This document shows positions 2,266-20,387 of a stretch of DNA of 24,000 nucleotides, piece after piece. The DNA is from an uncultured Dysosmobacter sp. (GTDB lineage Bacteria; Bacillota; Clostridia; Oscillospirales; Oscillospiraceae), in contig CAKTOO010000005.1 of NCBI GenBank assembly GCA_934590165.1, positions 82,431 through 106,430 on the forward strand, given 5' to 3'. Numbering within the stretch: position 1 is the stretch's first letter; every line of letters starts with the position of its first letter. Under the pieces are notes generated by a model. The model saw only the letters and a list, made by a program, of their open reading frames with translations, ran no database searches and was not told where the DNA came from. The position numbers and the translations under genes are program-made.

Positions 2266-3417
2266 TTACCACGTAAAGTCACCGGGATGATCATACTCAT
2301 GCCAGTTCACATTCAAGGCACGGGATACGATCTCCTCCAGCTGAGCGATCCTCAGCCCAGAGGCACCGTCACACTGCGCAGAGAAGATCACATCGCTCAT
2401 CTGCATGAAGAGTTCATAGGCCGTGCAAGGACTGTCTCCATGAATTGCTACGAAATAGTCCATAGCTTCATAGGAGGCTTTCTTTGGGGCCTTGATTCTT
2501 TTCAGGACACGCATGAGTGTTGTGACGGGATAGCGGATCTCGATGTTCATAAGCTGCACTTGCTTGTCCAGTGCCTTTTCAAACTGCGCATAGACCAATC
2601 TGAGCTGTTCCTCAAAATACTGCATATCCACGCCATTCTTGTGTTCGGTGCGAATGGAGTACCCCAATGGAACAATACGGCTCTCGGCACCAACCAGAAA
2701 GATCGGATAGAGATTTGCGCCGCTCATGCCCACATCGGAGGTGGAAAAGCGCAGCGCAGGAACCATTTTCTCAGTTTGCAAGCCTTTGGCAGCAATCTCC
2801 CTATGATATGTATCGAGAAGCTTGTCTGCCTGCCCATCCAGACGCCAGATTGCTGTCGCAATGGAGTGATCGAAGTGGGCTGTCATAAAAGTGTTTCCGG
2901 GATACTCACGGTTGAGAAAGTCGCTCGTTGCCTTAAATAGAGGTAGCATCTCCATAACGGTGTAGTCTTTCGGATCGCCACCATGTACTGCCGATACCTT
3001 CTCATCTGCGATTTTGATCAGGCTGTCACCGGAGGCGACGCCCATGCAGTAGTTGAGGATCTCAGCGAATACCGTCTTGGAAACTTTGTTGAGTGCATGC
3101 CCAGAGATGCGGGCTCGCTCGAGAACTGTTTTGATCGCGCAGGAACGAACCGGATAGTCCTTACCATCCACCTTCAGCAGGAGGCTGGTATTCTCCATTG
3201 TGTCTTCGAGAATCTCAGCGGCACCATTGTGGTCATAGATCTGCATGTACAGATTCCCAAGCGTGGAGCCTCGTTCCACCGGTTCGAACTGTAGTTCTCT
3301 GGATGGAGCGGTCATCCATTTGCTGCGGGCTTTCCGGTCACTCAGGAATTGAAAAAAATCCCCAGGCTCCGTAAAGCTACGACTGAAGTTGTCCGTGAAT
3401 ACTTTGCTTTCTGTCAT
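2266..3417 (-). CDS. Hypothetical protein, possibly DUF932-like (phage/plasmid-like protein family)
   Basis: 383-aa ORF with an AAAGGTGG RBS before the ATG at 3417. The internal segment ALRFSTSDVGMSGANLYPIFLVG resembles the xNSxDGSxA core of DUF932, but the match is weak and motif-level only. The longer of two overlapping antisense ORFs was chosen. Confidence 0.6.
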   Translation of the reverse strand: MTESKVFTDNFSRSFTEPGDFFQFLSDRKARSKWMTAPSRELQFEPVERGSTLGNLYMQIYDHNGAAEILEDTMENTSLLLKVDGKDYPVRSCAIKTVLERARISGHALNKVSKTVFAEILNYCMGVASGDSLIKIADEKVSAVHGGDPKDYTVMEMLPLFKATSDFLNREYPGNTFMTAHFDHSIATAIWRLDGQADKLLDTYHREIAAKGLQTEKMVPALRFSTSDVGMSGANLYPIFLVGAESRIVPLGYSIRTEHKNGVDMQYFEEQLRLVYAQFEKALDKQVQLMNIEIRYPVTTLMRVLKRIKAPKKASYEAMDYFVAIHGDSPCTAYELFMQMSDVIFSAQCDGASGLRIAQLEEIVSRALNVNWHEYDHPGDFTW

Positions 3418-4542: not shown

Positions 4543-5091
4543 TTAACTCAACGGCTGCTCCAGATCTCGCTTGAGGAAATCCCCATGCGCGATATACGGA
4601 GCTATGATTCTTACACCTTGGCATTGTAGAATCCGGAGCTTGAAGTCCAGTAACTCAGGTGGCACATACAAACACTTCGCTGTCTGGTAAAAGTCCATTT
4701 GCATCTCTAGTGATTCTATGACTGCGTCATCGCTGAGCATGAACTCCGCAGCAAACACATTTGCCTCATACTCCATTCGGTTTGTATCCTCAAACATTGC
4801 AAACTCATGGAAAGTGTTAATGGCCGAATCGCTGTGGAGAACTGCATGCCCTAGCTCGTGCGCAATGATAATTCGTTGAATGCTGTCGGGCAAATCGCTG
4901 TTGATCACAATCAGTTTGCACCGAGAAGAAACTAGGAAAAAGCCCTTGCAGGAACGGGGGCTCTTTCCCATTGGGCGCTCCATCACCTGGATATCCAAGT
5001 ACTTGCAGATCTCATACGGGTCATCCGTCTGATATTTCTTTTTCAATCGGCTTACTTCCTGCCTAATCGTCATCGTCAGCAATCCACTCAC
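4543..5091 (-). CDS. ImmA/IrrE-family zinc metallopeptidase (anti-repressor protease)
   Basis: HEXXH motif in IIAHELGHAVLH, with a downstream EYEANVFAAEFLM-type segment. The gene sits directly downstream of an XRE repressor, as in ImmR/ImmA modules. The start is ambiguous: GTG at 5091, TTG at 5082 or ATG at 5073. Confidence 0.85.
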   Translation of the reverse strand: MSGLLTMTIRQEVSRLKKKYQTDDPYEICKYLDIQVMERPMGKSPRSCKGFFLVSSRCKLIVINSDLPDSIQRIIIAHELGHAVLHSDSAINTFHEFAMFEDTNRMEYEANVFAAEFMLSDDAVIESLEMQMDFYQTAKCLYVPPELLDFKLRILQCQGVRIIAPYIAHGDFLKRDLEQPLS

Positions 5092-5177
5092 CTCACTTCA
5101 GAAAGTAGTTTTCTATGATACAGCCTGACAGTACCACAAGGGTTGTCCAAAAATCCGTACACTCAGAATATTCCTGC

Positions 5178-5615
5178 TTACTTTTTGTAGTCTTTACGGG
5201 TGAACTTCTCGCTGGCTCGCTGCTTATTTGCAAAATACGCCTCAGTGACTGCTTGGAAGAAAAGCTCCTTATCCTGCTCAGGGACATCTCCACCAGCAAA
5301 GAGAGCACGCGTTTGTGTCAGCAGCTGCTCTACATCAGTTGCTCCTTTACGGCCATAGGCTGCTCTTGCGCTCTCGATGTATGGTGCCTCTTCAAGTCCA
5401 TAGTTGGGATCTACGATCTCATCGTTGCTTAGATATGCCGTGGAAACACCCAGCACCTCTGCCAACCTCTGAAGATTCACACCGCGAGGCATTACACCTT
5501 GTTTTTCGTATTTGGTAATCGTGCGCAGCGTGACACCAATCTTATCGGCCAGTTCTGTTTGCGTAAGGCCCAGATGCGTGCGGCTCTCTCGAATCTTTTC
5601 ACCAGTCGTCTTCAT
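5178..5615 (-). CDS. XRE-family helix-turn-helix repressor (ImmR-like)
   Basis: N-terminal HTH IRESRTHLGLTQTELADKIGVTLRTITKYEKQ. GAGGAG RBS before the ATG at 5615. Divergently oriented from the polymerase operon. Confidence 0.85.
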   Translation of the reverse strand: MKTTGEKIRESRTHLGLTQTELADKIGVTLRTITKYEKQGVMPRGVNLQRLAEVLGVSTAYLSNDEIVDPNYGLEEAPYIESARAAYGRKGATDVEQLLTQTRALFAGGDVPEQDKELFFQAVTEAYFANKQRASEKFTRKDYKK

Positions 5616-5823: not shown

Positions 5824-7077
5824 ATGCCGAATATGGACGGTCGAGTTGTATTGCATAGTGACCTCAACAATTGCTATGCGAGTATTGAATGTATGCTGCA
5901 TCCGGAATTGCGCGGAAAGTACATTGCGGTTTGCGGCAGCGCAGAGGATCGACATGGGATCGTTCTTGCGAAGAACCAATTGGCAAAGCAGTGTGGGGTG
6001 AAGACAGGTGAAGTGATTTGGGAGGCACGCCAGAAGTGTCCGCAACTGACGATTGTAGAACCGCATATGGACCAATACTTGAAATTCTCCAAAATTGTCC
6101 GCTCTATCTACTTGCGATACTCTCCGGAAGTCGAGTCATTTGGCATTGATGAGAGCTGGATCGAGCTGACGGGGTCCCCGCTTCTCCAGCAGAAAACTCC
6201 GCTTGAAATCGCCAACGAGATTCGGACTACTGTGAAAGAAGAAGTCGGACTCACCGTTTCCATTGGCGTCAGCTTCAATAAGATTTTCGCGAAACTCGGC
6301 TCAGACATGAAAAAGCCAGATGCCGTGACTGTCATAACGCGGGAATCCTTCAAAGATCAGATCTGGCCGCTCCCCGTATCAGACCTGCTCTATGTGGGGC
6401 GAGCAACGACGGAAAAGCTTCGGCTCTACGGGATCCGTACCATCGGAGATCTGGCCCAAGCAGATCGGGCAATGCTAATTCGCCGGCTTGGCGTCAATGG
6501 TGAAAAGCTGTGGGTGTTTGCCAATGGACTGGATCAATCGCGCGTTATGCCATGCGACTACGAAATCCCCATCAAGAGCGTGGGGCACGGAATCACCTGC
6601 ACGGCAGACCTGCGTACAAATGAAGAGGTTCGACATGTTCTGATGGAGCTCTCACAGGAAGTGGGAGCAAAGCTGCGGAAAAGCAAACTGGCTGCCACGC
6701 GGGTCCGCATCAGTATTCGCGACAGCACACTGTCTCAGAGAGAGTACCAAGGGAAGCTGGAATTCCCAACTCAAAGTTATACAGAGATTGCTGCAGCTGG
6801 CTTTAATCTGTTCTGCCGGCGTTATCCATGGCCTGCGGATGTTCGATCTCTGACGATTAGCGCGATCGACCTGATCCCCTCGGATACACCAATTCAGCTC
6901 GATCTCTGGTCTGACTTTGAAAAGCATAATAAGCGTTTAACTTTGGAACGCACCGTGGAAGATATCCGCCATCGCTATGGGCTCGGTATGATCAATTTTG
7001 CGGCACTTACCTTTGGATTGAAAATGCCGACACATCGTGAGATCGAATATAAAATGCCATCTGTTATGTATCACTAA
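5824..7077 (+). CDS. Y-family DNA polymerase (DinB/UmuC, ImpB/MucB/SamB family)
   Basis: GGAGG RBS. The N-terminus VVLHSDLNNCYASIECMLHPELRGKYIAVCG matches the D-x-N/D-x-F/Y-ASVE catalytic motif. Further matches include SIDESWIELTG and the SIGVSFNKIFAKLGSDMKKPD palm motifs. Confidence 0.9.
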   Translation: MPNMDGRVVLHSDLNNCYASIECMLHPELRGKYIAVCGSAEDRHGIVLAKNQLAKQCGVKTGEVIWEARQKCPQLTIVEPHMDQYLKFSKIVRSIYLRYSPEVESFGIDESWIELTGSPLLQQKTPLEIANEIRTTVKEEVGLTVSIGVSFNKIFAKLGSDMKKPDAVTVITRESFKDQIWPLPVSDLLYVGRATTEKLRLYGIRTIGDLAQADRAMLIRRLGVNGEKLWVFANGLDQSRVMPCDYEIPIKSVGHGITCTADLRTNEEVRHVLMELSQEVGAKLRKSKLAATRVRISIRDSTLSQREYQGKLEFPTQSYTEIAAAGFNLFCRRYPWPADVRSLTISAIDLIPSDTPIQLDLWSDFEKHNKRLTLERTVEDIRHRYGLGMINFAALTFGLKMPTHREIEYKMPSVMYH

Positions 7078-7090
7078 GGAGGGACAGATT

Positions 7091-7441
7091 TTGATAACCA
7101 AAGTTGAGGAATTCCGGGACAAGCATACTGTCTCGGTCAACAGCAAGGGCGATATCCTTATCACAGGCTTCACCAACGCGAAAAATGAGAAGTGCTTCTG
7201 CATTATGGCAGACGGCCATCGCTATCATGAGTATGGCATCTCCACCGGCAGCCTCCTTCTCTGCCAGCGCGGCGCCGCCATCAATGACGGAGACCTCATC
7301 ATCGTGAAAGAGGACGGAGCTTTTACTATTTATCTTTATCTGAAAGACCGCAAAATCAAGGAGGATGGCGATAAGCGCATTCTCCATAACAAGTCCAAGG
7401 CCTACGCCAAAGTGATTGGCTCGTTCAACTTCTTTGAGTAA
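7091..7441 (+). CDS. UmuD'-like S24-fold protein lacking the Ser-Lys catalytic dyad
   Basis: ORF 7037..7441 trimmed to the TTG at 7091, 7 nt after AAGGAGGG. CIMADGHRYHEYGISTGSLLLCQRGAAINDGDLIIVKEDGAFTIYLY aligns by eye with UmuD [46 protein letters not shown]. In that alignment GDSM is replaced by ADGH. Confidence 0.5.
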   Translation: MITKVEEFRDKHTVSVNSKGDILITGFTNAKNEKCFCIMADGHRYHEYGISTGSLLLCQRGAAINDGDLIIVKEDGAFTIYLYLKDRKIKEDGDKRILHNKSKAYAKVIGSFNFFE

Positions 7442-8862: not shown

Positions 8863-9789
8863 ATGATTATCTCTGTCGATCACGGCAATAAATCGATCAA
8901 GACCCCGAACGCGCTTTTCACCTCCGGCCTGATTTCGTCCGAAGGGCTGCAAGGATTCAAAACGGACTATATCGGCTGGAACGGGCGCTACTATACGCTG
9001 ACAGAACAGCGCATTTCTTATCTGCGCGACAAAACCGAAGACGAGCGGTTCTATGTCCTGACTCTCTTCGCTATCGCCAAGGAACTGGAACGGCGCAAGG
9101 CAGCTGAAACGCTGGATCCGATTGACATCACGCTCCTGATTGGATTGCCCCCAGCGCACTATGAACAGCTCCACAGTCGCTTTGAGCAGTACTTTCTGCG
9201 GCGCCGTGAGGCCATTGACTTCGAGTACAATGGAAAATACTACTCGATTCGCATCAGCAAGGTTCTCAGCTACCCTCAGGCATTTGCGGCTGCTGTAACA
9301 CAGTACAGTACGCTCAAGACCTATTCTGTTGCCTACATCATCGACATCGGCGGCTTTACCATTGACGTGCTCAAGCTGCGGAACGGACGTCCTGACCTGG
9401 CGGTGGTCGAAAGTTTTGAAAAGGGGGTCATCACCCTCTACAACAGCATTACAAGCAAATGCAATGCGCTCTATGCCCGGATCTTGGAGGACTGCGATAT
9501 TGATGAGGTCATTCGCAATCAGCCTACTGTCCTTCCTGGTGAAGTGCAACAGCTGATTCGCAGCATGACAGGAGAGTTTCTTTCGGAGTTCTATAACTTC
9601 CTTCGTGAGCGCGGCATCGATGTAACGACCAGCAAATGCGTGTTTGCCGGTGGTGGCTCTCTTCTCCTTCGAGGAATGATCGAGAGGGCAAATAAAGTAG
9701 CATTCCCCATTTTCATCGAAGATATTCATGCCAATGCACGCGGCTATGAACTCCTCTATCAGAGTGAGGTAGCGTCGAATGGGCAGTAA
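8863..9789 (+). CDS. parM: ParM/StbA-family actin-like segregation ATPase
   Basis: ORF 8776..9789 trimmed to the ATG at 8863 (GAGGAGG RBS). Actin-fold motifs are MIISVDHGNKSIK (phosphate 1), YIIDIGGFTIDV (phosphate 2) and VFAGGGSLLL (adenosine). Confidence 0.8.
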   Translation: MIISVDHGNKSIKTPNALFTSGLISSEGLQGFKTDYIGWNGRYYTLTEQRISYLRDKTEDERFYVLTLFAIAKELERRKAAETLDPIDITLLIGLPPAHYEQLHSRFEQYFLRRREAIDFEYNGKYYSIRISKVLSYPQAFAAAVTQYSTLKTYSVAYIIDIGGFTIDVLKLRNGRPDLAVVESFEKGVITLYNSITSKCNALYARILEDCDIDEVIRNQPTVLPGEVQQLIRSMTGEFLSEFYNFLRERGIDVTTSKCVFAGGGSLLLRGMIERANKVAFPIFIEDIHANARGYELLYQSEVASNGQ

Positions 9790-10117
9790 TAGTAAGTCTC
9801 GTGTTGTGCTCCAGTTCAATGAAATGGACTTTCGACACCGGCGCGCACTCGATATTTTACGGCAACGACCACGCAGCATGTCCGAATTGGTCGTCAATGC
9901 GATCCTGCACTACACAAGCTGCCCAGAAGCGGCCAACGAGTTTGGCCGCGACTGGGTGGTGAGCATCGTCAAGGATGTCGTTCGCGAGATGGTCACAAAT
10001 GGAGAACTCCAAGCTGTATCACAACCCACGTCCCCAAAGCCGGAGAGTCCAACGCTGGCGGCTGATGATCTTGCGGATCTCGGTGGTGTCATGGGGATGT
10101 TCCGGTCGAAGGAGTAA
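9779..10117 (+). CDS. Putative ParR-like ribbon-helix-helix adaptor
   Basis: The start overlaps the parM stop (ATGGGCAGTAA). The N-terminus SRVVLQFNEMDFRHRRALDILRQRPRSMSELVVNAILHY has a beta-strand/helix/helix RHH pattern. The C-terminal tail is acidic and disordered-looking. The position matches parMR operons. Confidence 0.45.
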   Translation: MGSNSKSRVVLQFNEMDFRHRRALDILRQRPRSMSELVVNAILHYTSCPEAANEFGRDWVVSIVKDVVREMVTNGELQAVSQPTSPKPESPTLAADDLADLGGVMGMFRSKE

Positions 10118-10121
10118 GGCC

Positions 10122-10736
10122 ATGAGCAATAAGAAATTTGGATATGCTCGTGTATCCACAGCTGAGCAAAATGAGGATCGTCAGGTTCTTGAATTGCTCG
10201 AGTACGGCATTGAAGAGCGTGATATCTATGTGGACAAGCAGAGCGGCCGTAGTTTTGAGCGAACAAACTACATGTCACTACGAAATAGCATTTTGCGTAA
10301 TGGCGATATCCTGGTCGTTAAAAGCATTGATCGTTTTGGCCGTAATTACTCTGGAATTCGCACCGAGTGGGAATATCTTACCAAAACGCTTGGTGTGGAC
10401 ATCGTCGTTCTGGACACTCCCATTCTGGATACGACCCGATACAAAGATCTACTCGGTAGTGTAATCACGGATATTGTCCTCGCCGTACTATCTTTCGGCG
10501 CTCAGCTGGAAGTTGATACCAAGTCGAAGGCACAGGCGGAAGGGATTGCCGCCGCGCATCTAAAGGGTGTCAAATTTGGGCGGCCAAAGTGCTCTGTAAA
10601 GGACTGGGATATCTATTATCCCAAGTGGAAGCAAGGAGAAATCACAGCTGTCGAGTGCTATAGGCAGTTGGGCGTCAGCGCATCGACATTTTATCGGTTG
10701 GTGCATAAGTTTGAGTCGGAGGGAAAAGTACGATGA
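10122..10736 (+). CDS. Small serine recombinase (resolvase/invertase family)
   Basis: ORF 9975..10736 trimmed to the ATG at 10122. FGYARVSTAEQNEDRQ carries the catalytic Ser. VVKSIDRFGRN is present, and the C-terminal HTH is LGVSASTFYRLVHKF. Confidence 0.9.
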   Translation: MSNKKFGYARVSTAEQNEDRQVLELLEYGIEERDIYVDKQSGRSFERTNYMSLRNSILRNGDILVVKSIDRFGRNYSGIRTEWEYLTKTLGVDIVVLDTPILDTTRYKDLLGSVITDIVLAVLSFGAQLEVDTKSKAQAEGIAAAHLKGVKFGRPKCSVKDWDIYYPKWKQGEITAVECYRQLGVSASTFYRLVHKFESEGKVR

Positions 10737-11140
10737 AGCGCTGTATTATATATGCAAGAATTGGTGGACCAGCTTCGGAGGTAAATAACAGCCTTATGCA
10801 AGCACAGCTGGCCGGACTCCGTGCAGCCGCAGAAGGCCTCGGCTTAGAGGTCGTGGCAGAGCTTCCAGTTTTTGAGCATGGTAATGATGGGAACCGGCAA
10901 AGCATCAAGACGTTGGCTCGGGATAGGCGGCATGGCCTTTACGAATGTGTGCTGGTAAAGAATTTGTCACGCTTGGCCCGTGGAGAGGCCATTCTCGAAG
11001 TTGGCCGCAAATTCGCAAGTGCCGGGCTTTCGGTCTACACACCTTCCGGTCGTGCTGAACTGATTCCGCCCGTTTATGCCTTCTACTCCAGATATCACAC
11101 GGAAGGAGGTCCTGCATTTGGCTCGCGAAACCAAAAATGA
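10733..11140 (+). CDS. Degenerate resolvase N-terminal-domain paralog (catalytic Ser absent)
   Basis: ATGA start/stop overlap with the resolvase gene. CIIYARIGGPASE occupies the position of YARVSTxxQ, with Ser replaced by Gly. VLVKNLSRLARG occupies the position of vlvxxlDRlaRn. No DNA-binding domain is present. Confidence 0.5.
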   Translation: MKRCIIYARIGGPASEVNNSLMQAQLAGLRAAAEGLGLEVVAELPVFEHGNDGNRQSIKTLARDRRHGLYECVLVKNLSRLARGEAILEVGRKFASAGLSVYTPSGRAELIPPVYAFYSRYHTEGGPAFGSRNQK

Positions 11141-11309
11141 GGATCGAAAGCAAAGGATTCGTGACGCTTTCCAAGAGGGTCAAGCAGTAGAACGGATGCC
11201 AGCTCGCTATGTTGTAATATCAGAGGATATTACAGGCGATAGAGTTTTGGCAAAATTCCAACTCATTCAGTTCAAGGAGGATATTGATGTGTCAAGAACC
11301 CACACTTAA
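11076..11309 (+). CDS. Questionable ORF (possible frameshifted or truncated remnant abutting the IscB element)
   Basis: 77-aa ORF overlapping the previous CDS by 65 nt in another frame. It has no RBS and no motif. It ends exactly where the hairpin-rich noncoding region begins. Confidence 0.2.
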   Translation: MPSTPDITRKEVLHLARETKNEDRKQRIRDAFQEGQAVERMPARYVVISEDITGDRVLAKFQLIQFKEDIDVSRTHT

Positions 11310-11610
11310 ACGCAAAAGCGTTTTGAAGTGGTGCTTGTGGGAAAACTACAAGCCTGATTGACTACCCTAAGTGTTTCGAACACTACGTTACTTGAGAATG
11401 TATAGGCACCTGCGGGCGTTCGTCCGAACCCGCCGCTCTGCGGCATACGATTAAAAGCTCTGGGGGTAAGGAGCGGTGTCGTATGTAAGAAAACCTCAGG
11501 ATAACATTGGGTACGGACACCTGACCTGCGTGATTGGCTCTACCGGTCATACAGGCGCGGCTTCTATATTAGCCGCATCAAGATTATCGGAAAGAGGGCA
11601 TTGACATGCC
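11310..11610 (+). ncRNA. Candidate omegaRNA (IscB guide-RNA scaffold); 5' end and guide position not resolved
   Basis: No ORF of 60 aa or more in any frame across 11310-11563. Stems are dense: GCTTGTGG/CTACAAGC (11333-11353), AGTGTT/AACACT (11370-11384), GCGGG/CCCGC (11412-11433) and CATACGA/TCGTATG (11444-11485) enclosing GCTC/GAGC. Further stems are TGACC/GGTCA (11522-11549), GCGGCT/AGCCGC (11557-11576) and GGCAT/ATGCC spanning the iscB ATG (11597-11610). The location is where IscB omegaRNAs are encoded. Confidence 0.6.
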
Positions 11611-12901
11611 TGATAAGGTCTATGTTATCAGCCGGCTCGGACATCCGTTGATGCCCTGCTCTCCGGCAAAAGCCCGTCATCTTCTGGATGACAAGAAAGC
11701 AAAGGTTGTCAAACGGACGCCTTTCACTATCAGGCTCCTCTATGGGAGCACTAAGTATATTCAGCCGGTCATTCTCGGCGTGGATGCAGGAAGCAAGACC
11801 ATTGGTCTGTCGGCAAGTACGGTGAAGGAGGAATTGTTTGCTGCTGAGGTAATGCCACGGAATGACGTGGTGGAAAACCTCTCCACGCGAAGAGCGTTCC
11901 GCCGAGCACGCCGGAACCGTACCACACGGTATCGGGAACCTCGTTCTGATAATCGTGTGCGTAGCAATCACGAATGTTGGCTTGCACCTTCTGTGAAAGT
12001 TAAAATTCAGGAGCATATTACTTCTATCAAGAGGGTATGTACTATCCTGCCTGTCAGCAAAGTGGTCATTGAGACTGCAGAATTCGACCTTCAGCTCCTC
12101 AAAGCTATTCAGGACGGAAAGCCTATCCCAGAGGGCGAGGACTATCAGAAGGGCGAAATGTACGGTTCTTATAATGTTCGTCAGTACGTCCTCTGGAGAG
12201 ATAACTACACCTGCACCTGCTGCGGAGTCAAGGGCACGGACAAGAAGCCAGTCAAACTGCATGTCCACCATTTTGAGAGCCGCAAACACGGTGGGAATGC
12301 TCCGGACAACTACGGCACGCTCTGCGAGGATTGCCACAAGAAGTTTCACCTCGGCATCATTATCGATGAGATGCTCAAGACGCGCAAGCGCCGCTCCACG
12401 AGAGACGCCGCCTTTATGGGCATTATGCGCAAGACACTGATGCAGAGACTCAGAGCAGAGCTCTCCATCCCTGTCGCAGAGACGAAGGGCTACATCACAA
12501 AAGCAACCCGCGAGAAGCTGCTGGTACTTCCGAAGAGCCACACTAGCGATGCTCTGGCAATTGCACAGGGTAGACACGGCTTTAGTATTAAGGCGCACAC
12601 CTATGTAGAACCGGCAAACCACATCTACACGGTCCGCCCGGTACGGCATCATAACCGCCAGCTCCACAAAGCCTCTATCCTGAAGAGCGGTATCCGAAAG
12701 CGCAATCAGGCATCTAAATATGTCTTTGGTTTCCGACTCTACGATAAGGTTCTCTATCAGGGAAAAGAGTGTTTCGTGTGGGGGCGGAGAACAAGCGGAA
12801 GCTTTCTTCTTCGAACAATTGACGGTATAAAGGTCAAAGACGGTGTAAGTTGCAGAAACCTCACTCTACTTGAACGAAGCAGCAATTACCTTATTGCGTA
12901 A
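11606..12901 (+). CDS. iscB: IscB RNA-guided nuclease (OMEGA effector; split RuvC with inserted HNH, PLMP N-terminal domain)
   Basis: 431 aa with AGAGGG RBS. PLMP motif in GHPLMPC (aa 12-18). RuvC-I is ILGVDAGSKTIG (D60). The Arg-rich bridge helix is RRAFRRARRNRTTRYR (aa 95-110). RuvC-II is VVIETAEFD (E156). HNH is CTCCG...HVHHF...N...CEDCHKKFH (aa 203-248). RuvC-III is KSHTSDALAIA (H312, D315). The C-terminal segment is GFRLYDKVLYQGKECFVWGRRTSGSFLL. Confidence 0.85.
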   Translation: MPDKVYVISRLGHPLMPCSPAKARHLLDDKKAKVVKRTPFTIRLLYGSTKYIQPVILGVDAGSKTIGLSASTVKEELFAAEVMPRNDVVENLSTRRAFRRARRNRTTRYREPRSDNRVRSNHECWLAPSVKVKIQEHITSIKRVCTILPVSKVVIETAEFDLQLLKAIQDGKPIPEGEDYQKGEMYGSYNVRQYVLWRDNYTCTCCGVKGTDKKPVKLHVHHFESRKHGGNAPDNYGTLCEDCHKKFHLGIIIDEMLKTRKRRSTRDAAFMGIMRKTLMQRLRAELSIPVAETKGYITKATREKLLVLPKSHTSDALAIAQGRHGFSIKAHTYVEPANHIYTVRPVRHHNRQLHKASILKSGIRKRNQASKYVFGFRLYDKVLYQGKECFVWGRRTSGSFLLRTIDGIKVKDGVSCRNLTLLERSSNYLIA

Positions 12902-12985
12902 ACAATAGAGAAGAGGAAAACTATCGATTCCTCTCCCTACCCATAGAGGTGTGGGATTCTTATCTAAAATCCAGACAAATAAAAA

Positions 12986-13018
12986 ATGGCCTTCGGTATG
13001 TGTTGTACCGGAGGTCAT
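12986..13018 (+). terminator. Hairpin downstream of iscB (terminator and/or right-end structure)
   Basis: 13-nt arms ATGGCCTTCGGTA (12986-12998) / TACCGGAGGTCAT (13006-13018). The two G.U wobbles pair only in the plus-strand RNA. Followed by TCGTTT, a weak U-tract. Confidence 0.5.
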
Positions 13019-13124
13019 TCGTTTACGTACCATTTCAGTACGACAAATACCATAATGCTCATTTCTGATTTTCTGCCATCCCTCTATACTGTGAGAAAGT
13101 ACAGGATAGGTAGGAGAAGATCAA

Positions 13125-13457
13125 ATGAGTACGAGATTGCAAATCATGGGCAGCCGGATTCGGACTGCAAGGCAGTTCCGCCGCCTCACTGGTGAACAGC
13201 TCGCTGAGAAGATCGGTATTGCTGTAGACTCGCTTCGACACATAGAAAATGGAGTCCGATCACCAAGTTTCCAGCTCATTGAGCGCATCTCGGATATTCT
13301 AGACGTTTCACTCGACTACTTAGCTGGGAAGACGGATTCTCCTCTGGAGCATAGAGTTCGCAAGGAACTTGAAAACTCTGGACTAACGAAGGAGCAAGAA
13401 GATGCCATTGTTGAGTTGGCATTAAACTCGATCCCGATCATCAAAAAACACATTTGA
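13125..13457 (+). CDS. XRE-family HTH transcriptional regulator
   Basis: GGAG RBS. HTH is IRTARQFRRLTGEQLAEKIGIAVDSLRHIENGVRSPS. Confidence 0.85.
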   Translation: MSTRLQIMGSRIRTARQFRRLTGEQLAEKIGIAVDSLRHIENGVRSPSFQLIERISDILDVSLDYLAGKTDSPLEHRVRKELENSGLTKEQEDAIVELALNSIPIIKKHI

Positions 13458-13461
13458 GCAA

Positions 13462-13497
13462 TGCACCTGTCGATCTGGCAGGTGCAATTTTATTTTT
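13462..13497 (+). terminator. Rho-independent terminator
   Basis: Stem TGCACCTG (13462-13469) / CAGGTGCA (13479-13486), followed by ATTTTATTTTT. Confidence 0.75.
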
Positions 13498-13552
13498 CAT
13501 TCTTCCTTAATCCGACTGTTTTCGCGCTTTCTCTCATGTAATATGTACTTAC

Positions 13553-13570
13553 TTGATACGATTGTATCAA
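13553..13570. promoter_or_regulatory. Inverted repeat, putative operator
   Basis: TTGATAC-GATT-GTATCAA is a perfect 7-bp inverted repeat. It lies between a TAATAT hexamer (13539-13544) and the GGAGGG RBS of the 13593 gene, just downstream of an XRE regulator gene. Confidence 0.4.
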
Positions 13571-13592
13571 ATCTGTACGGAGGGATGAAGAC

Positions 13593-14243
13593 ATGACAGT
13601 ACAAAACGCATTAGAGGAAATGAAAGAACGCGCATTTGCCCCTGCTTTTCAAAAGTATTTGTTCGATACATACAAGGTACTGGCGCAAACAGATTTTTCC
13701 GAAGAGGAAAAGGACTACACAGCGGCTGAAGACTATTTTACCACCACATTGGAGCAGTCCGAGAACGAGATCCTAAGCCAGATCAAAACCAATTACGAGG
13801 CAAAACTGCGGTATGCATCCCGGTATGCTTTCAACGCAGGCCTGTATTCTGGGTTCGTCCAGCACTTTTCCAATCAAGATCTTGTTGTCGATGGATTTGA
13901 AAAGCATCTCATGCAAGATCTCTTTGAGATGCCTGGTATGCAGCGCCATACTCTGTTTTTGCAGATGCATGACGAAAACCAGAAGCTTATCGAGCAGCTC
14001 GAGATTGATGGTGATGAAGAGCGACGAGAGCATTTGACCTCGATTGAGTGTGCGTGGGAGCAACGCGTTCATTGGGCGGCCTGCCACAGCTTCTACTGCG
14101 GTTATCGCGCTGCGGTCAAAGTTCTTACTGCTGTTGAGGGCGTGAGCACCTTTGACATGATTCCACACACCTTGCTGTTGGAATATCACTTGGGATATAC
14201 GAAGTCCTATGACCAAACGGAACAGCAGCATATTGATAGATAG
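13593..14243 (+). CDS. Hypothetical protein
   Basis: 216-aa ORF with GGAGGG RBS. No recognised motif. Confidence 0.65.
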   Translation: MTVQNALEEMKERAFAPAFQKYLFDTYKVLAQTDFSEEEKDYTAAEDYFTTTLEQSENEILSQIKTNYEAKLRYASRYAFNAGLYSGFVQHFSNQDLVVDGFEKHLMQDLFEMPGMQRHTLFLQMHDENQKLIEQLEIDGDEERREHLTSIECAWEQRVHWAACHSFYCGYRAAVKVLTAVEGVSTFDMIPHTLLLEYHLGYTKSYDQTEQQHIDR

Positions 14244-14318
14244 CGGAGTTGAACGGCAGTAGCACAATACAAAGGGGCAATTCAATAGATTCTCAATGAC
14301 TTCACATGAATGACATGA

Positions 14319-14370
14319 AAAGACACGCCAATCTGCGGGAATGATTTATCCCATAGATTGGTGTGTCTTT
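14319..14370 (+). terminator. Long hairpin downstream of the 13593 gene (probable terminator)
   Basis: 16-bp outer stem AAGACACGCCAATCT / AGATTGGTGTGTCTT with one G.U wobble, plus an inner GGGA/TCCC stem. Flanked by an A-run on the 5' side and TTT on the 3' side. Confidence 0.5.
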
Positions 14371-14397
14371 CGCTTCGACTATAATACTAAAGGCTGC

Positions 14398-14423
14398 GAG
14401 GTGTCCGTTCTTTCGGACACCTC
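14398..14423 (+). promoter_or_regulatory. Leader hairpin whose 5' arm duplicates the downstream Shine-Dalgarno region (possible attenuator or SD-sequestration switch)
   Basis: Perfect 10-bp stem GAGGTGTCCG (14398-14407) / CGGACACCTC (14414-14423), followed by TTCTTGT. The real RBS GGAGGTGTCG at 14464-14473 repeats GAGGTGTC. A TATAAT hexamer lies at 14380-14385 just upstream. Confidence 0.4.
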
Positions 14424-14476
14424 TTCTTGTATGCTTGCGGTAGAGTTCGAAGAAAGAACTACCGGAGGTGTCGAAG

Positions 14477-16099
14477 ATGTATGTGCTCGTTGATATGGAA
14501 TGGATCTCGAATCAGCGTGGTAATCATTGGCCAACACAGTTGGCCGCTGCCCGCGTAGATGCGCAATGGAATACAGTTGATACTTTTTCCGTGCTATTTC
14601 GCCCGAGAGACTTCTCCTTGCAGCAATGGGGGCATATGGCTTTTTCCGGCTGGAGCAGGGAGCAGTTCCTCGATGGAGAAAGCCTTTATGCTGGATTGGA
14701 CGCTTTCCGCCTTTGGCTGCAACCAGAGGATACGATATGCTGGTGGCATCAGGAAGCAAGTGACCTGTTCAATATGTTCTCCAAGGTATCCGGTGTTCCT
14801 GATATGACTCAGCACGTCGTGTTGCTCTGTGATTACATTTACGGTTACTTAGCAGGACAGGAGGCGTCTGTTGGTAGCCCTTATAAGATCTGTGCGGCGC
14901 GCAATATCGTCACACCTTCTCCAGCGCACTGCTCCGTCAACGATGTAGCAACCATGCAACTGCTTGCGCAGGTCATTGGCTTTGAGCAGAAGTATTTACT
15001 TGAGCCACCGAAAAGATGGAGCAAAGACGCAATGGCACAGAAAGGTTCTTCTGCCTATAAGCTGCTCTATGATCCTCAGGCCAAGCTCCTTCATAAATCC
15101 GACTGTGAGTTACTACCTGATGATCGCCATTTCCCAGCGTTCCTCACATTCAAGCTTCCAATTCGCCGCAAGTACAAGCCTTGTAGCTGCTGCAGGGATG
15201 AATTCTTAGATGCGCTGTGGGATCGCAATCAAGACTCTATCGCTCGCTCTGAATATAACTATGTCTACTCCAAGCAGTCCAAAATCTTTCACACCAGGAA
15301 GTGCAGTCATGTTCTGCTGGCCTATGATATTCAGGGAACCGTTTCCTACGACACCTGCCTTAAAAGCGGGCGACGCCCTTGTAAGCACTGCAATCCGGAG
15401 CCGATTGAGCACAAGACGATTGCTTTTCCGGTACTGCCAAAGAAGCCGCAAGCCCCTCAGGAGCGTTCTTTGAGCAAGGACGAGCAAAGTGCCATCGGAC
15501 GCTTTAATCGTGCTAAACAGGAGCGTGAAGCTGCATTCAAGAAAGGCTCCCTTTCCGATGCTGAGAAAAGCAACATTATGGCACTCTCGCAGCCAGGGCT
15601 GGCATTCTGGGCAAGTAAAGGGTATCGCACATTCCACCGCAGGAACTGCTCTCAAATCTCAGGCCTCAACCAACTGGTCGGCTTTCCTCGTTATCAGGAT
15701 GCTGTCCGCGCAGGGTACTGCCCATGCCGGCACTGTAAGCCAAGTCCGAAGCAAGATGTCGTCTATTCAATTCCCATCACCAACAAAAAACGTGCGGGAG
15801 AAAGCGTCGAAACCCTGGTGCAACTCTGTACGGAGCACTGCCTTCCATTTCACCACGACAATCGATACTTCGAGATGCAGACAATGGTGGGCAAGTGGAA
15901 AATTGATATGGACTTACGGCCAGTCCGACTGGAACACATAAATCTCGTCTCTCAGCCGGAGAACACAAAGAAATATCATGTGCAGCCCCGTCTGTTCCTC
16001 TCCTTAAAGGATACATTCGATTACATTATGCGACATGATAATGCCCTTATAAAACGGATCGAAGGGACAAGCCAGGAAGTACAACTTCAAATGGGATAA
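14477..16099 (+). CDS. DEDDh (DnaQ/RNase T-like) 3'-5' exonuclease fused to three Ada-type zinc-binding modules
   Basis: Trimmed to the ATG at 14477, 6 nt after GGAGGTG. ExoI is VLVDMEW, ExoII is EASDLFNMF and ExoIII is HCSVNDVATM (H-x4-D). Three repeats of the Ada_Zn_binding pattern FH-x3-C...PC-xx-C follow. They are LLHKSDC...KPCSCC, IFHTRKC...RPCKHCNP and TFHRRNC...CPCRHCKP. Confidence 0.7.
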   Translation: MYVLVDMEWISNQRGNHWPTQLAAARVDAQWNTVDTFSVLFRPRDFSLQQWGHMAFSGWSREQFLDGESLYAGLDAFRLWLQPEDTICWWHQEASDLFNMFSKVSGVPDMTQHVVLLCDYIYGYLAGQEASVGSPYKICAARNIVTPSPAHCSVNDVATMQLLAQVIGFEQKYLLEPPKRWSKDAMAQKGSSAYKLLYDPQAKLLHKSDCELLPDDRHFPAFLTFKLPIRRKYKPCSCCRDEFLDALWDRNQDSIARSEYNYVYSKQSKIFHTRKCSHVLLAYDIQGTVSYDTCLKSGRRPCKHCNPEPIEHKTIAFPVLPKKPQAPQERSLSKDEQSAIGRFNRAKQEREAAFKKGSLSDAEKSNIMALSQPGLAFWASKGYRTFHRRNCSQISGLNQLVGFPRYQDAVRAGYCPCRHCKPSPKQDVVYSIPITNKKRAGESVETLVQLCTEHCLPFHHDNRYFEMQTMVGKWKIDMDLRPVRLEHINLVSQPENTKKYHVQPRLFLSLKDTFDYIMRHDNALIKRIEGTSQEVQLQMG

Positions 16100-19722: not shown

Positions 19723-19799
19723 GGTCCGCTCGTCTAAATGGTTAGGACACAGCCCTTTCACGGCTGCAATGACCGGTTCGAGTCCGGCGCGGATCTCCA
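19723..19799 (+). tRNA. tRNA-Glu (anticodon UUC)
   Basis: Hand-folded. Acceptor GGTCCGC/GCGGATC with one G.U. D region is TCGTCTAAATGGTTAGGACA. Anticodon stem CAGCC/GGCTG with loop CTTTCAC. T-loop is TTCGAGT. CCA is encoded. There is an A.C mismatch at the top of the T-stem. Confidence 0.8.
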
Positions 19800-19805
19800 A
19801 AATAA

Positions 19806-19880
19806 TGGGATATGGCCAAGCGGCTAAGGCACCGGCCTTTGACGCCGGCACCGTTGGTTCGAATCCAACTATCCCAACCA
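19806..19880 (+). tRNA. tRNA-Gln (anticodon UUG)
   Basis: Acceptor TGGGATA/TATCCCA, with U1-A72 typical of bacterial tRNA-Gln. D region is GCCAAGCGGCTAAGGC. Anticodon stem CCGGC/GCCGG with loop CTTTGAC. T arm is GTTGG-TTCGAAT-CCAAC. CCA is encoded. Confidence 0.9.
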
Positions 19881-19881
19881 T

Positions 19882-19958
19882 GATACGGTACTCAAGAGGT
19901 TGAAGAGGACAGCCTGCAAAGCTGTTAATCGTCGGTTCGAATCCGACCCGTATCTCCA
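19882..19958 (+). tRNA. tRNA-Cys (anticodon GCA)
   Basis: Acceptor GATACGG/CCGTATC. Anticodon stem ACAGC/GCTGT with loop CTGCAAA. T arm is GTCGG-TTCGAAT-CCGAC. Discriminator is U and CCA is encoded. The D arm CTC-AAGAGGTTGAA-GAG is unusually Ser/Leu-like. Confidence 0.8.
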
Positions 19959-19962
19959 ATAT

Positions 19963-20039
19963 GGTGCCTTCGTCTAATTGGTCAGGACGCAAGCCTCTCA
20001 AGCTTGTAATGCTGGGTTCGAGTCCCGCAGGCATCACCA
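19963..20039 (+). tRNA. tRNA-Glu (anticodon CUC)
   Basis: Acceptor GGTGCCT/AGGCATC with one G.U. Anticodon stem CAAGC/GCTTG with loop CTCTCAA. T-loop is TTCGAGT. CCA is encoded. There is a C.C mismatch at the top of the T-stem. Confidence 0.8.
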
Positions 20040-20048
20040 TCATCATAT

Positions 20049-20123
20049 AGGGGTATAGCTTAACTGGTAGAGCAGCGGTCTCCAAAACCGCCCGTGGGTG
20101 TTCAAGTCGCCCTATCCCTGCCA
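20049..20123 (+). tRNA. tRNA-Trp (anticodon CCA)
   Basis: Acceptor AGGGGTA/TATCCCT. D region is TAGCTTAACTGGTAGAGCA. Anticodon stem GCGGT/ACCGC with loop CTCCAAA. T arm is GGGTG-TTCAAGT-CGCCC. Discriminator is G and CCA is encoded. Confidence 0.9.
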
Positions 20124-20129
20124 TTTTAT

Positions 20130-20205
20130 TGGGGTGTCGCCAAGCGGTCAAGGCACCGGTCTCTGACACCGGCATTTGTTGGTTCGAATCCAACCACCCC
20201 AGCCA
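20130..20205 (+). tRNA. tRNA-Gln (anticodon CUG)
   Basis: Acceptor TGGGGTG/CACCCCA. Anticodon stem CCGGT/ACCGG with loop CTCTGAC. T arm is GTTGG-TTCGAAT-CCAAC. CCA is encoded. Confidence 0.9.
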
Positions 20206-20210
20206 TACTT

Positions 20211-20296
20211 GGAGAGTGAACCCAGAAGGTCTGGGGACCGCCCGCTAAGCGGATCGCACTGCATGGTGTCAGATTCGAGTTCTGCGCTCTCCGCCA
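20211..20296 (+). tRNA. Non-canonical long-variable-arm tRNA, anticodon GCU (Ser-type), with an apparent 8/4 acceptor/T-stem geometry
   Basis: Hand-folded. The 8-bp acceptor is GGAGAGTG/CGCTCTCC with no U8, followed by an AA linker. D stem is CCCAG(A)/(T)CTGGG, 5-6 bp. Anticodon stem is (A)CCGC/GCGG(A) with loop CCGCTAA, which puts C at position 33. The variable arm is about 16 nt with GCAC/GTGT pairing. The 4-bp T stem is CAGA/TCTG with loop TTCGAGT. Discriminator is G and CCA is encoded. Confidence 0.6.
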
Positions 20297-20299
20297 TAT

Positions 20300-20387
20300 G
20301 GGTCAGTACGCGTAGTTGGCGAGCGCAGCGGTCTGTAAAACCGTGACATAAGAAACATCGTTGGTTCAATTCCAACCTGGCCCACCA
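20300..20387 (+). tRNA. tRNA-Tyr (anticodon GUA), long variable region
   Basis: Acceptor GGGTCAG/CTGGCCC with one U.G. Anticodon stem GCGGT/ACCGT with loop CTGTAAA. The 15-nt variable region GACATAAGAAACATC has little self-pairing. T arm is GTTGG-TTCAATT-CCAAC. CCA is encoded. Confidence 0.75.

Follow-up and report, generated by a model that had tools for sequence, protein, structure and literature searches.

The stretch of DNA analysed here, which we call the window, comprises 24,000 nucleotides of a 440-kb contig (CAKTOO010000005.1, uncultured Dysosmobacter sp.) from a Hadza gut metagenome; all coordinates below are positions within this 24-kb window, and the + strand applies throughout the element. 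Between 11291 and about 12985, it holds a unit of about 1.7 kb in which a structured RNA of the HEARO family, an iscB gene and a set of sub-terminal hairpins follow one another (Table 1). We are highly confident that this unit is a non-autonomous insertion sequence (IS) of the IS200/IS605 family, encoding an IscB RNA-guided DNA endonuclease, of the type ancestral to Cas9, together with its omegaRNA. Its limits come from a comparison with 16 related copies and with several IscB-free alleles of the same neighbourhood, given as L numbers where they have to be told apart; relatives belong to Oscillospiraceae and other Clostridia. An earlier interpretation made from the letters of the DNA alone, hereafter the sequence-only reading, had announced a complete locus at 11310-12901: the protein and the RNA are indeed both present, but these limits leave out the guide, the first 19 nt of the scaffold and the far end of the element.

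Table 1. Features of the iscB element and of its immediate flanks in the 24-kb window.
Feature	Position	Strand	Evidence or remark
Putative omegaRNA guide AGGAGGATATTGATGT	11275..11290	+	Flanking DNA outside the element; also the 3' end of the recombinase remnant ORF
omegaRNA scaffold (HEARO)	11291 to ~11580	+	Rfam RF02033, covariation, start of homology with L012, fold z-score
iscB, 431 aa	11606..12901	+	Pfam, NCBIfam, PDB sequence matches, motifs
Far end of the element ('LE' in the TnpA convention), with sub-terminal hairpins	12902 to ~12985	+	End of window-specific DNA; folding of relatives
Putative target/transposon-adjacent motif ATGGC (read on the - strand, GCCAT), at the very start of the right flank	12986..12990	+	
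Context outside the element: 63-aa ORF (77 aa if read from 11076), remnant of a large serine recombinase	11118..11309	+	

The iscB open reading frame (ORF) begins with an ATG preceded, about 8 nt upstream, by a ribosome-binding site (AAAGAGGG). The sequence-only reading had laid out a series of IscB motifs along the 431-aa product, and a script check located each of them, D60, E156, H312 and D315 included: the PLMP motif GHPLMPC (aa 12-18), RuvC-I GVDAGSKTIG (aa 58-67, with D60), an Arg-rich bridge helix RRAFRRARRNRTTRYR after RuvC-I (aa 95-110), RuvC-II VVIETAEF (aa 153-160, with E156), RuvC-III KSHTSDALAIA (aa 310-320, with H312 and D315) and a C-terminal motif GFRLYDKVLYQGKECFVWGRRTSGSFLL (aa 375-402). 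The bridge helix aligns to its OgeuIscB equivalent, and the structure model predicts a helix around it at aa 88-104. The HNH domain is inserted between RuvC-II and RuvC-III, with three motifs (CTCCG, aa 203-207; HVHHF, aa 219-223; CEDCHKKFH, aa 240-248) which hold the zinc site C203/C206/C240/C243 as well as H221/H222 and H248, N235 lying between the last two of them.

The catalytic residues had been described as intact, and this holds, since they align to OgeuIscB and are invariant in the clade. Indeed, D60, E156 and H312/D315 fall on the GIDPG, VVLE and PKDHYLDA motifs of solved IscBs, H221/H222 on the corresponding OgeuIscB motifs, and GHPLMPC on GKPLMPT of OgeuIscB-type chains, with P14, L15, M16 and P17 invariant in a 22-sequence family alignment. 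The twelve catalytic and zinc-binding residues are all kept in 9/9 copies that are 73-91% identical, and the ratio of non-synonymous to synonymous substitution rates (dN/dS) of iscB is 0.08-0.14 against five independent copies (0.23 against L011); the low ratio of 0.08-0.14 and the conserved key residues together show that iscB is maintained by selection.

The identity proposed for the protein was likewise borne out by hidden Markov model comparison. With the NCBIfam equivalog guided_IscB NF040563 ('RNA-guided endonuclease IscB'), whose cutoff is 175 bits, the protein reaches 315.5 bits (3.5e-94), aa 5-319 being aligned to model positions 1-312 of 314, and Pfam recognises RRXRR (1.8e-54, aa 5-183) and HNH (1e-5, aa 203-248, 26 bits for a cutoff of 21.4). 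The best solved relatives are all IscB chains, with 11hr at 4.6e-35 and OgeuIscB (7xht) at 3.6e-33 from the single sequence, values that improve to 6.6e-50 and 9.7e-49, respectively, with a 22-sequence family profile; IsrB and Cas9d-type proteins rank after them. It had also been foreseen that routine annotation would go no further than HNH or RRXRR, and this is the case: the protein belongs to a cluster of 1366 members that no source names, and RRXRR and HNH are all that the precomputed annotation gives for it.

We see practically no chance that the gene encodes a stand-alone HNH homing endonuclease or a restriction-type nuclease without RNA partner, the structure upstream being an unrelated leader. 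The HNH region does resemble, weakly, that of ZorE, of the phosphorothioate-dependent restriction enzyme and of McrA-type proteins, but these matches span only about aa 190-290 and reach 17-21 bits for cutoffs of 130-600, scores so far below cutoff that we rejected this candidate; moreover, solved IscBs can be aligned with the protein at its split RuvC motifs, its PLMP motif and its bridge helix alike, and HEARO matches the leader in full, with covariation (see below). All other NCBIfam models, those of ZorE, of the phosphorothioate-dependent restriction enzyme and of Cas9d included, stay far under their cutoffs. Cas9 or Cas9d was discarded on a score of 16.8 bits for a Cas9d model cutoff of 375 and on a length of only 431 aa, and an Rfam scan of the window returned no CRISPR-related RNA family. 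IsrB is ruled out, as the protein has an HNH domain.

The sequence-only reading had placed an omegaRNA upstream of the gene, which the Rfam covariance search confirms. HEARO (RF02033), a family later identified as the IscB omegaRNA, matches 11291-11525 at full length (model positions 1-211 of 211) with 101.3 bits for a gathering score of 83 (4.2e-20); the match ends 80 nt 5' of the iscB start codon, on the same strand, and the family occurs in the equivalent position in 9 relatives. An RNAalifold consensus built on 12 aligned copies, from the scaffold start to the iscB start codon, contains 65 pairs, 29 of which show compensatory changes on both sides, and it includes two covariation-supported hairpins at about 11526-11580 that lie outside the Rfam model; Meers et al. 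(bioRxiv 10.1101/2023.03.14.532601) noted that the RF02033 model lacks downstream elements. RNAalifold also proposed a long-range pairing between a CCCU at about 11369 and the iscB ribosome-binding site, which we dismissed, as it has no covariation and clashes with the Rfam pairing. We place the 3' end of the scaffold only approximately, at about 11580, and take its first base, 11291, as the guide-side transposon end ('RE' in the TnpA convention).

The leader of 315 nt (11291-11605) has a minimum free energy of -114.7 kcal/mol (z = -3.9), a value reached by 0/100 shuffles, and several stops in each of the three forward frames. It had been called a structured and ORF-free leader starting at 11310. 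The structure stands; the absence of any ORF does not strictly hold, given that the last 19 nt of a remnant ORF overlap it, and the start has to be moved some 20-35 nt upstream, to 11291 for the scaffold and to about 11275 with the guide. A promoter scan 5' of the omegaRNA found nothing above chance, which, with co-oriented genes upstream, fits transcription of the omegaRNA by read-through; Meers et al. reported that IscB elements tend toward the orientation of the upstream gene.

Immediately 5' of the scaffold, whose start is conserved as GTCAAT/GTCAAG, conservation is lost: the preceding 40-45 nt are mutually unrelated in 15 copies, which is the signature expected of a guide drawn from flanking DNA. 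The putative guide was placed according to Meers et al., and its length of 16 nt is an assumption taken from characterised IscBs.

The same position comes out as an end of the element when whole loci are compared. In L012, an 85% identical copy from another Oscillospiraceae genome, homology to the window starts at 11290/11291, the first HEARO base; the DNA specific to the window relative to IscB-free alleles covers 11289-12984, and conservation breaks at 11290/11291 on the left and at 12984/12985 on the right. For the far end, we examined 12902-12985 of the window and its equivalents in L012, L014, L015, L017, L018, L019, L048 and L055 by per-copy folding and stem search, since RNAalifold on a MAFFT alignment gave no pairs, the alignment being out of register. 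The window has two hairpins there, AGAGGAA...TTCCTCT (about 12912-12934) and CCCATA...TGTGGG (12940-12955). In seven relatives, the 60-75 nt past the stop codon fold as a single long interrupted hairpin with outer stems that vary and yet stay complementary (GGGCTGT/ACAGCCC, GGGCGA/TCGCCC, GCTGGCGC/GCGCCAGC, CGGCAA/TTGCCG and CTGCGGATACC/GGTATCCGCAG). This far-end hairpin, which no Rfam family covers, is probably the end recognised by TnpA. An alternative GGAGG...CCTCC hairpin overlaps it in these IscB elements.

A short way past the end structure stands ATGA or ATGG (ATGR) in 12 of 13 contexts and ATGT in the remaining one. ATGAA is the reverse complement of the TTCAT published for GstIscB and its TnpA, which share this motif next to the left end (Meers et al.). 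We found no direct repeat, that is, no target-site duplication, flanking the element. Neither scans of the 24-kb window nor the genes called in the 21-kb locus L001 showed a Y1 TnpA; according to Meers et al., proximity of iscB to tnpA is rare (about 1.5%).

IscB-free alleles of the same neighbourhood are found in L030, L031, L034, L035 and L039, and they provide an empty-site-like state to compare. The window reads ...AAGGAGGATATTGATGT|GTCAAG... at its left junction and ...AAAAA|ATGGCCTTCGG at its right one, and L031 reads ...AAGGAGGATATCGATAT|ATGAACGC at the equivalent site. In L031 and L035, 14 of 16 positions match the window guide (AGGAGGATATCGATAT), and ATGAA follows immediately. Upstream of the element, window 10000-11207 matches L031 1108-2315 and window 11196-11288 matches L031 3189-3281, from which we deduce an internal deletion of about 873 nt between ATGCCAG(C/A)TCG repeats. 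The upstream ORF of 63/77 aa (window 11076-11309 against L031 2226-3287) is thus what this deletion has left of a 353-aa large serine recombinase; the ORF ends at 11309, so that 19 nt of it fall inside the element.

Three sister copies deserve a description of their own. L011 (1-1725) comes from the cultured Hominicoprocola fusiformis CLA-AA-H269; its iscB is 91% identical and its downstream flank is that of the window, and homology begins only at the equivalent of window 11467, so that just the last third of the omegaRNA is kept, the guide and the other two-thirds being replaced by DNA beside thioredoxin and thioredoxin-reductase genes; no HEARO match was found in this locus. L013, a copy from a metagenome-assembled genome with window-type junctions, has lost 9 nt (TACGTTACT) at about 1060-1075 (alignment columns 127-137), which make up one strand of a conserved long-range omegaRNA helix, and it scores under the Rfam threshold. 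L045, with an IscB 86% identical to that of the window, has the right junction of the window and, on its left, the end of a 112-aa gene, without either resolvase or the recombinase remnant (L045 1145-1185 against window 10091-10125); in the window, the DNA that follows this type of left flank is ATGAG.

Several results weigh against reading the unit as an IscB insertion sequence, and they concern the C-terminal part of the protein, the far end and the insertion site. Beyond aa 319, where NF040563 ends, and about aa 361, where the PDB sequence alignments end, the protein is hard to place: a profile built on its C-terminal 101 residues found no chain in the PDB, even at E <= 10, and the full-length AlphaFold model, made from a shallow alignment, is poor (mean predicted local distance difference test score, pLDDT, of 49.8) because the usable homologues are all at least 72% identical. 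PDB fold matches of this full-length model (IsrB, Cas9d and Cas9) are indicative only. A beta-barrel is predicted with confidence at about aa 372-425 (pLDDT 75-93), and, among PDB folds, the C-terminal domain comes closest to the IsrB-omegaRNA-DNA complex 8dmb, with a probability of 1.00 and 26% identity, a modest match all the same (E = 0.017, 64 columns); OrufIscB (rank 21) and Cas9d come lower, among generic Tudor/SH3-like barrels with similar scores. On this model, we read the barrel as what may be a shortened, divergent domain interacting with the target/transposon-adjacent motif (TAM).

At the far end, the window, L045 and L011 are without the 6-11 bp outer stem of the relatives and keep only a 6-7 bp GATTCC/GGGATT stem; the spacing from the end structure to ATGG is about 20 nt in the window lineage versus 5-10 nt in relatives, and the right flank of the window is ATGGC, not ATGAA. 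The far-end hairpin of the window copy looks partly decayed. There is no simple empty site, as the IscB-free alleles hold 579 nt (a 190-aa gene) in place of the element, so that a deletion or an allele replacement must have accompanied or followed insertion. Finally, the exact window protein occurs in a single context, on at least 23 contigs, and the window copy may therefore no longer be mobile.

Part of this evidence is just what one would expect of an immobilised element, which may retain a working nuclease and RNA and yet neither transposes nor homes any more and persists only by vertical or plasmid-borne inheritance. We regard this 'fossil end, live nuclease' as a serious rival, while leaning against it; on identity, it is a sub-case of the reading as an IscB insertion sequence, from which it differs only on present-day mobility. 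It draws on the loss of the outer stem, which seven other copies have kept, on the single context, on the lack of a TnpA in the window and on the RNA damage in the sisters L011 (5' two-thirds of the omegaRNA) and L013 (9-nt deletion, under the HEARO threshold). One has to keep in mind, however, that iscB normally stands without a TnpA close by (about 1.5% association, Meers et al.), that the ORF is under strong purifying selection with all its catalytic residues, that the window omegaRNA is a full-length HEARO match, that the flank still carries ATGG, an ATGR motif, and that the guide still agrees at 14/16 positions with IscB-free alleles, beside ATGAA.

The persistence of purifying selection despite a decayed IS end could also be accounted for if the plasmid-like element had recruited IscB for a function of the host or of the plasmid, for example, the exclusion of competing alleles without the insertion, and not to maintain the transposon. 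The constant position of the gene at one junction of a widespread plasmid/ICE-like module (ICE, integrative and conjugative element) would agree with such a domestication, as would the near-match of the guide, next to a canonical ATGAA, in alleles with an intact large serine recombinase and the 190-aa gene. We nevertheless find it improbable: nothing sets it apart from ordinary homing, in which empty alleles are by definition the ones cut, the two guide mismatches, one of them near the TAM, may block cleavage, no partner gene is co-conserved, and the clade is found in many unrelated chromosomal contexts.

Taken as an IscB insertion sequence, the unit would work as follows. Transcription of the omegaRNA would come from upstream, probably as read-through of the recombinase genes, which are co-oriented; the 5' end of the omegaRNA, about 16 nt from the flank (~11275-11290), would serve as the guide, and the scaffold, from 11291 to about 11580, would bind IscB. 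The complex would recognise guide-matching DNA with ATGR(N) on its 3' side and use its HNH and RuvC sites to cut both strands. Such a target would be present only where the element is not, either at the donor joint left by excision or in an empty allele, and recombinational repair of the break from an element-bearing copy would then restore or spread the element. Movement itself would require a Y1 TnpA transposase provided from elsewhere.

How a copy might acquire a new guide is a matter of speculation, drawn from two junction types, with no further variants found. The window, L011 and L045 share their far-end junction, and two different guide-side junctions exist in this lineage; at both of them, the stretch that is absent compared with other alleles starts with ATGA(A/G), so that on the TnpA strand it ends with a TTCAT-like site. 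If TnpA cut at such a pseudo-site and joined it to the element end, the DNA in between would be lost and a new guide installed in one step. That IscB guides are re-written in this way, through deletions between the omegaRNA-side end and the next TAM-like site further out, seems to us a rather doubtful proposition. A metagenome scan for a lineage-specific 20-mer, TCTAAAATCCAGRCAAATAA, returned two true copies with the same junctions as the window, and thus no new junction variants, besides five matches of 20-21 nt in unrelated DNA; by a rough estimate, a collection so large would yield these by chance. We no longer take this stretch for an element of its own.

The neighbours of the element are an ImmA/IrrE-XRE pair, UmuC/UmuD-like genes, two resolvase-family genes, an XRE gene, metallophosphatases, a PucR-type regulator and a ParM-like partition protein (phrog_691, 1.2e-29), and no phage structural genes were detected. 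A location inside a larger plasmid/ICE-like element is plausible. The sequence-only reading had described the locus as cargo inside a larger mobile element; the plasmid/ICE-like genes and the recurrence of the neighbourhood in many samples agree with the larger element, whose boundaries did not come out of the comparison, and the word cargo has to be given up, the IscB unit being a nested non-autonomous IS rather than a passive passenger. A megablast of 9500-14500 against plasmid and phage collections gave no match, so these collections hold no annotated close relative.

Further observations concern this surrounding DNA. At 4546-5615 and 5824-7441, an ImmA/IrrE metallopeptidase and an XRE repressor are divergent from UmuC-like (IMS family) and UmuD/LexA-like (Peptidase_S24) genes, a set that is a typical SOS-responsive control module of mobile elements. 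At 19723-20387, a tight array of seven tRNAs (Glu-TTC, Gln-TTG, Cys-GCA, Glu-CTC, Trp-CCA, Gln-CTG and Tyr-GTA) sits in a region that otherwise looks plasmid/ICE-like. As an exact sequence, the 110-aa XRE protein encoded at 13125-13457 is indexed in some 55,000 blocks of assemblies, and its left-hand contexts vary, with type IV secretion system coupling-protein and RepA_N genes, rubrerythrin/desulfoferrodoxin genes or resolvases; this abundance and these varied contexts make the XRE/216-aa module part of a very widespread, modular gut mobile element. Where the adjacent 204-aa resolvase has YARVST, the 135-aa 'resolvase' has YARIGG, and, judging from these residues, it may be catalytically dead. 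In two NCBI genomes (L026 and L029, positions 3253-3379 against window 11080-11206), a resolvase-like gene 74% similar to the 135-aa ORF of the window stands inverted beside the same XRE module, a hint that a recombinase may have rearranged the junction.

IscB, HEARO and their role in the preservation of IS200/IS605 elements are already established, and the locus brings no new principle. What is new is a compact, apparently intact and uncharacterised orthologue of 431 aa, of a known kind, from an abundant clade of human-gut Oscillospiraceae with thousands of relatives; its shorter, divergent C-terminal domain and its putative ATGR TAM could interest genome-editing screens. The locus also offers a clean natural picture of the geometry of guide, element end and TAM, with an empty-site-like allele to set beside it, and it is a case of an IS nested at a junction prone to recombination, within a widespread plasmid-like module.

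Among known systems, the closest in layout is the IS605-family GstIscB element of Geobacillus stearothermophilus, set beside ours by its published description. In both, one transposon end delimits the omegaRNA, which lies 5' of iscB, the flank supplies the guide, a hairpin-bearing end follows the stop codon, the element is non-autonomous without tnpA, the upstream gene is co-oriented, and the flanking ATGR(N) corresponds to the reverse complement of TTCAT. They differ in the host, here a gut Oscillospiraceae and not a Geobacillus, in the end hairpin, which looks decayed in the window copy, and in the motif, which is looser here at positions 4-5 (ATGAA, ATGAT, ATGGA and ATGGC). OgeuIscB (7xht, 8csz and 7utn), from a human-gut metagenome, shares the domain order, the catalytic motifs and the HEARO-type class of omegaRNA, but it is longer (496 aa versus 431 aa), with about 30 residues after the bridge helix that are skipped in the alignment; this alignment ends at about aa 361 of our protein, whose C-terminal domain is shorter and unalignable by sequence, and the TAM would be ATGR here, versus the NWRRNA of OgeuIscB.

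As for the RNA, the match to HEARO is full-length with its helices kept, several of them with compensatory changes in relatives; the window RNA departs from the model by a 19-nt insertion in the first hairpin, lies at the low end of the scores (101 bits, versus 122-148 for L014, L017 and L019-L021) and is prolonged downstream by about 55 nt of extra conserved hairpins, as Meers et al. noted for the family. IsrB (8dmb) resembles the window protein in its N-terminal PLMP/RuvC/bridge-helix part (1.4e-22) and provides the best fold match for the C-terminal part, but it is without the HNH domain. Cas9d, or type II-D Cas9, matches in the HNH/RuvC core; unlike the protein described here, for which there is neither a CRISPR array nor a REC insertion, it is about 740-780 aa long and comes with REC lobes and CRISPR arrays.

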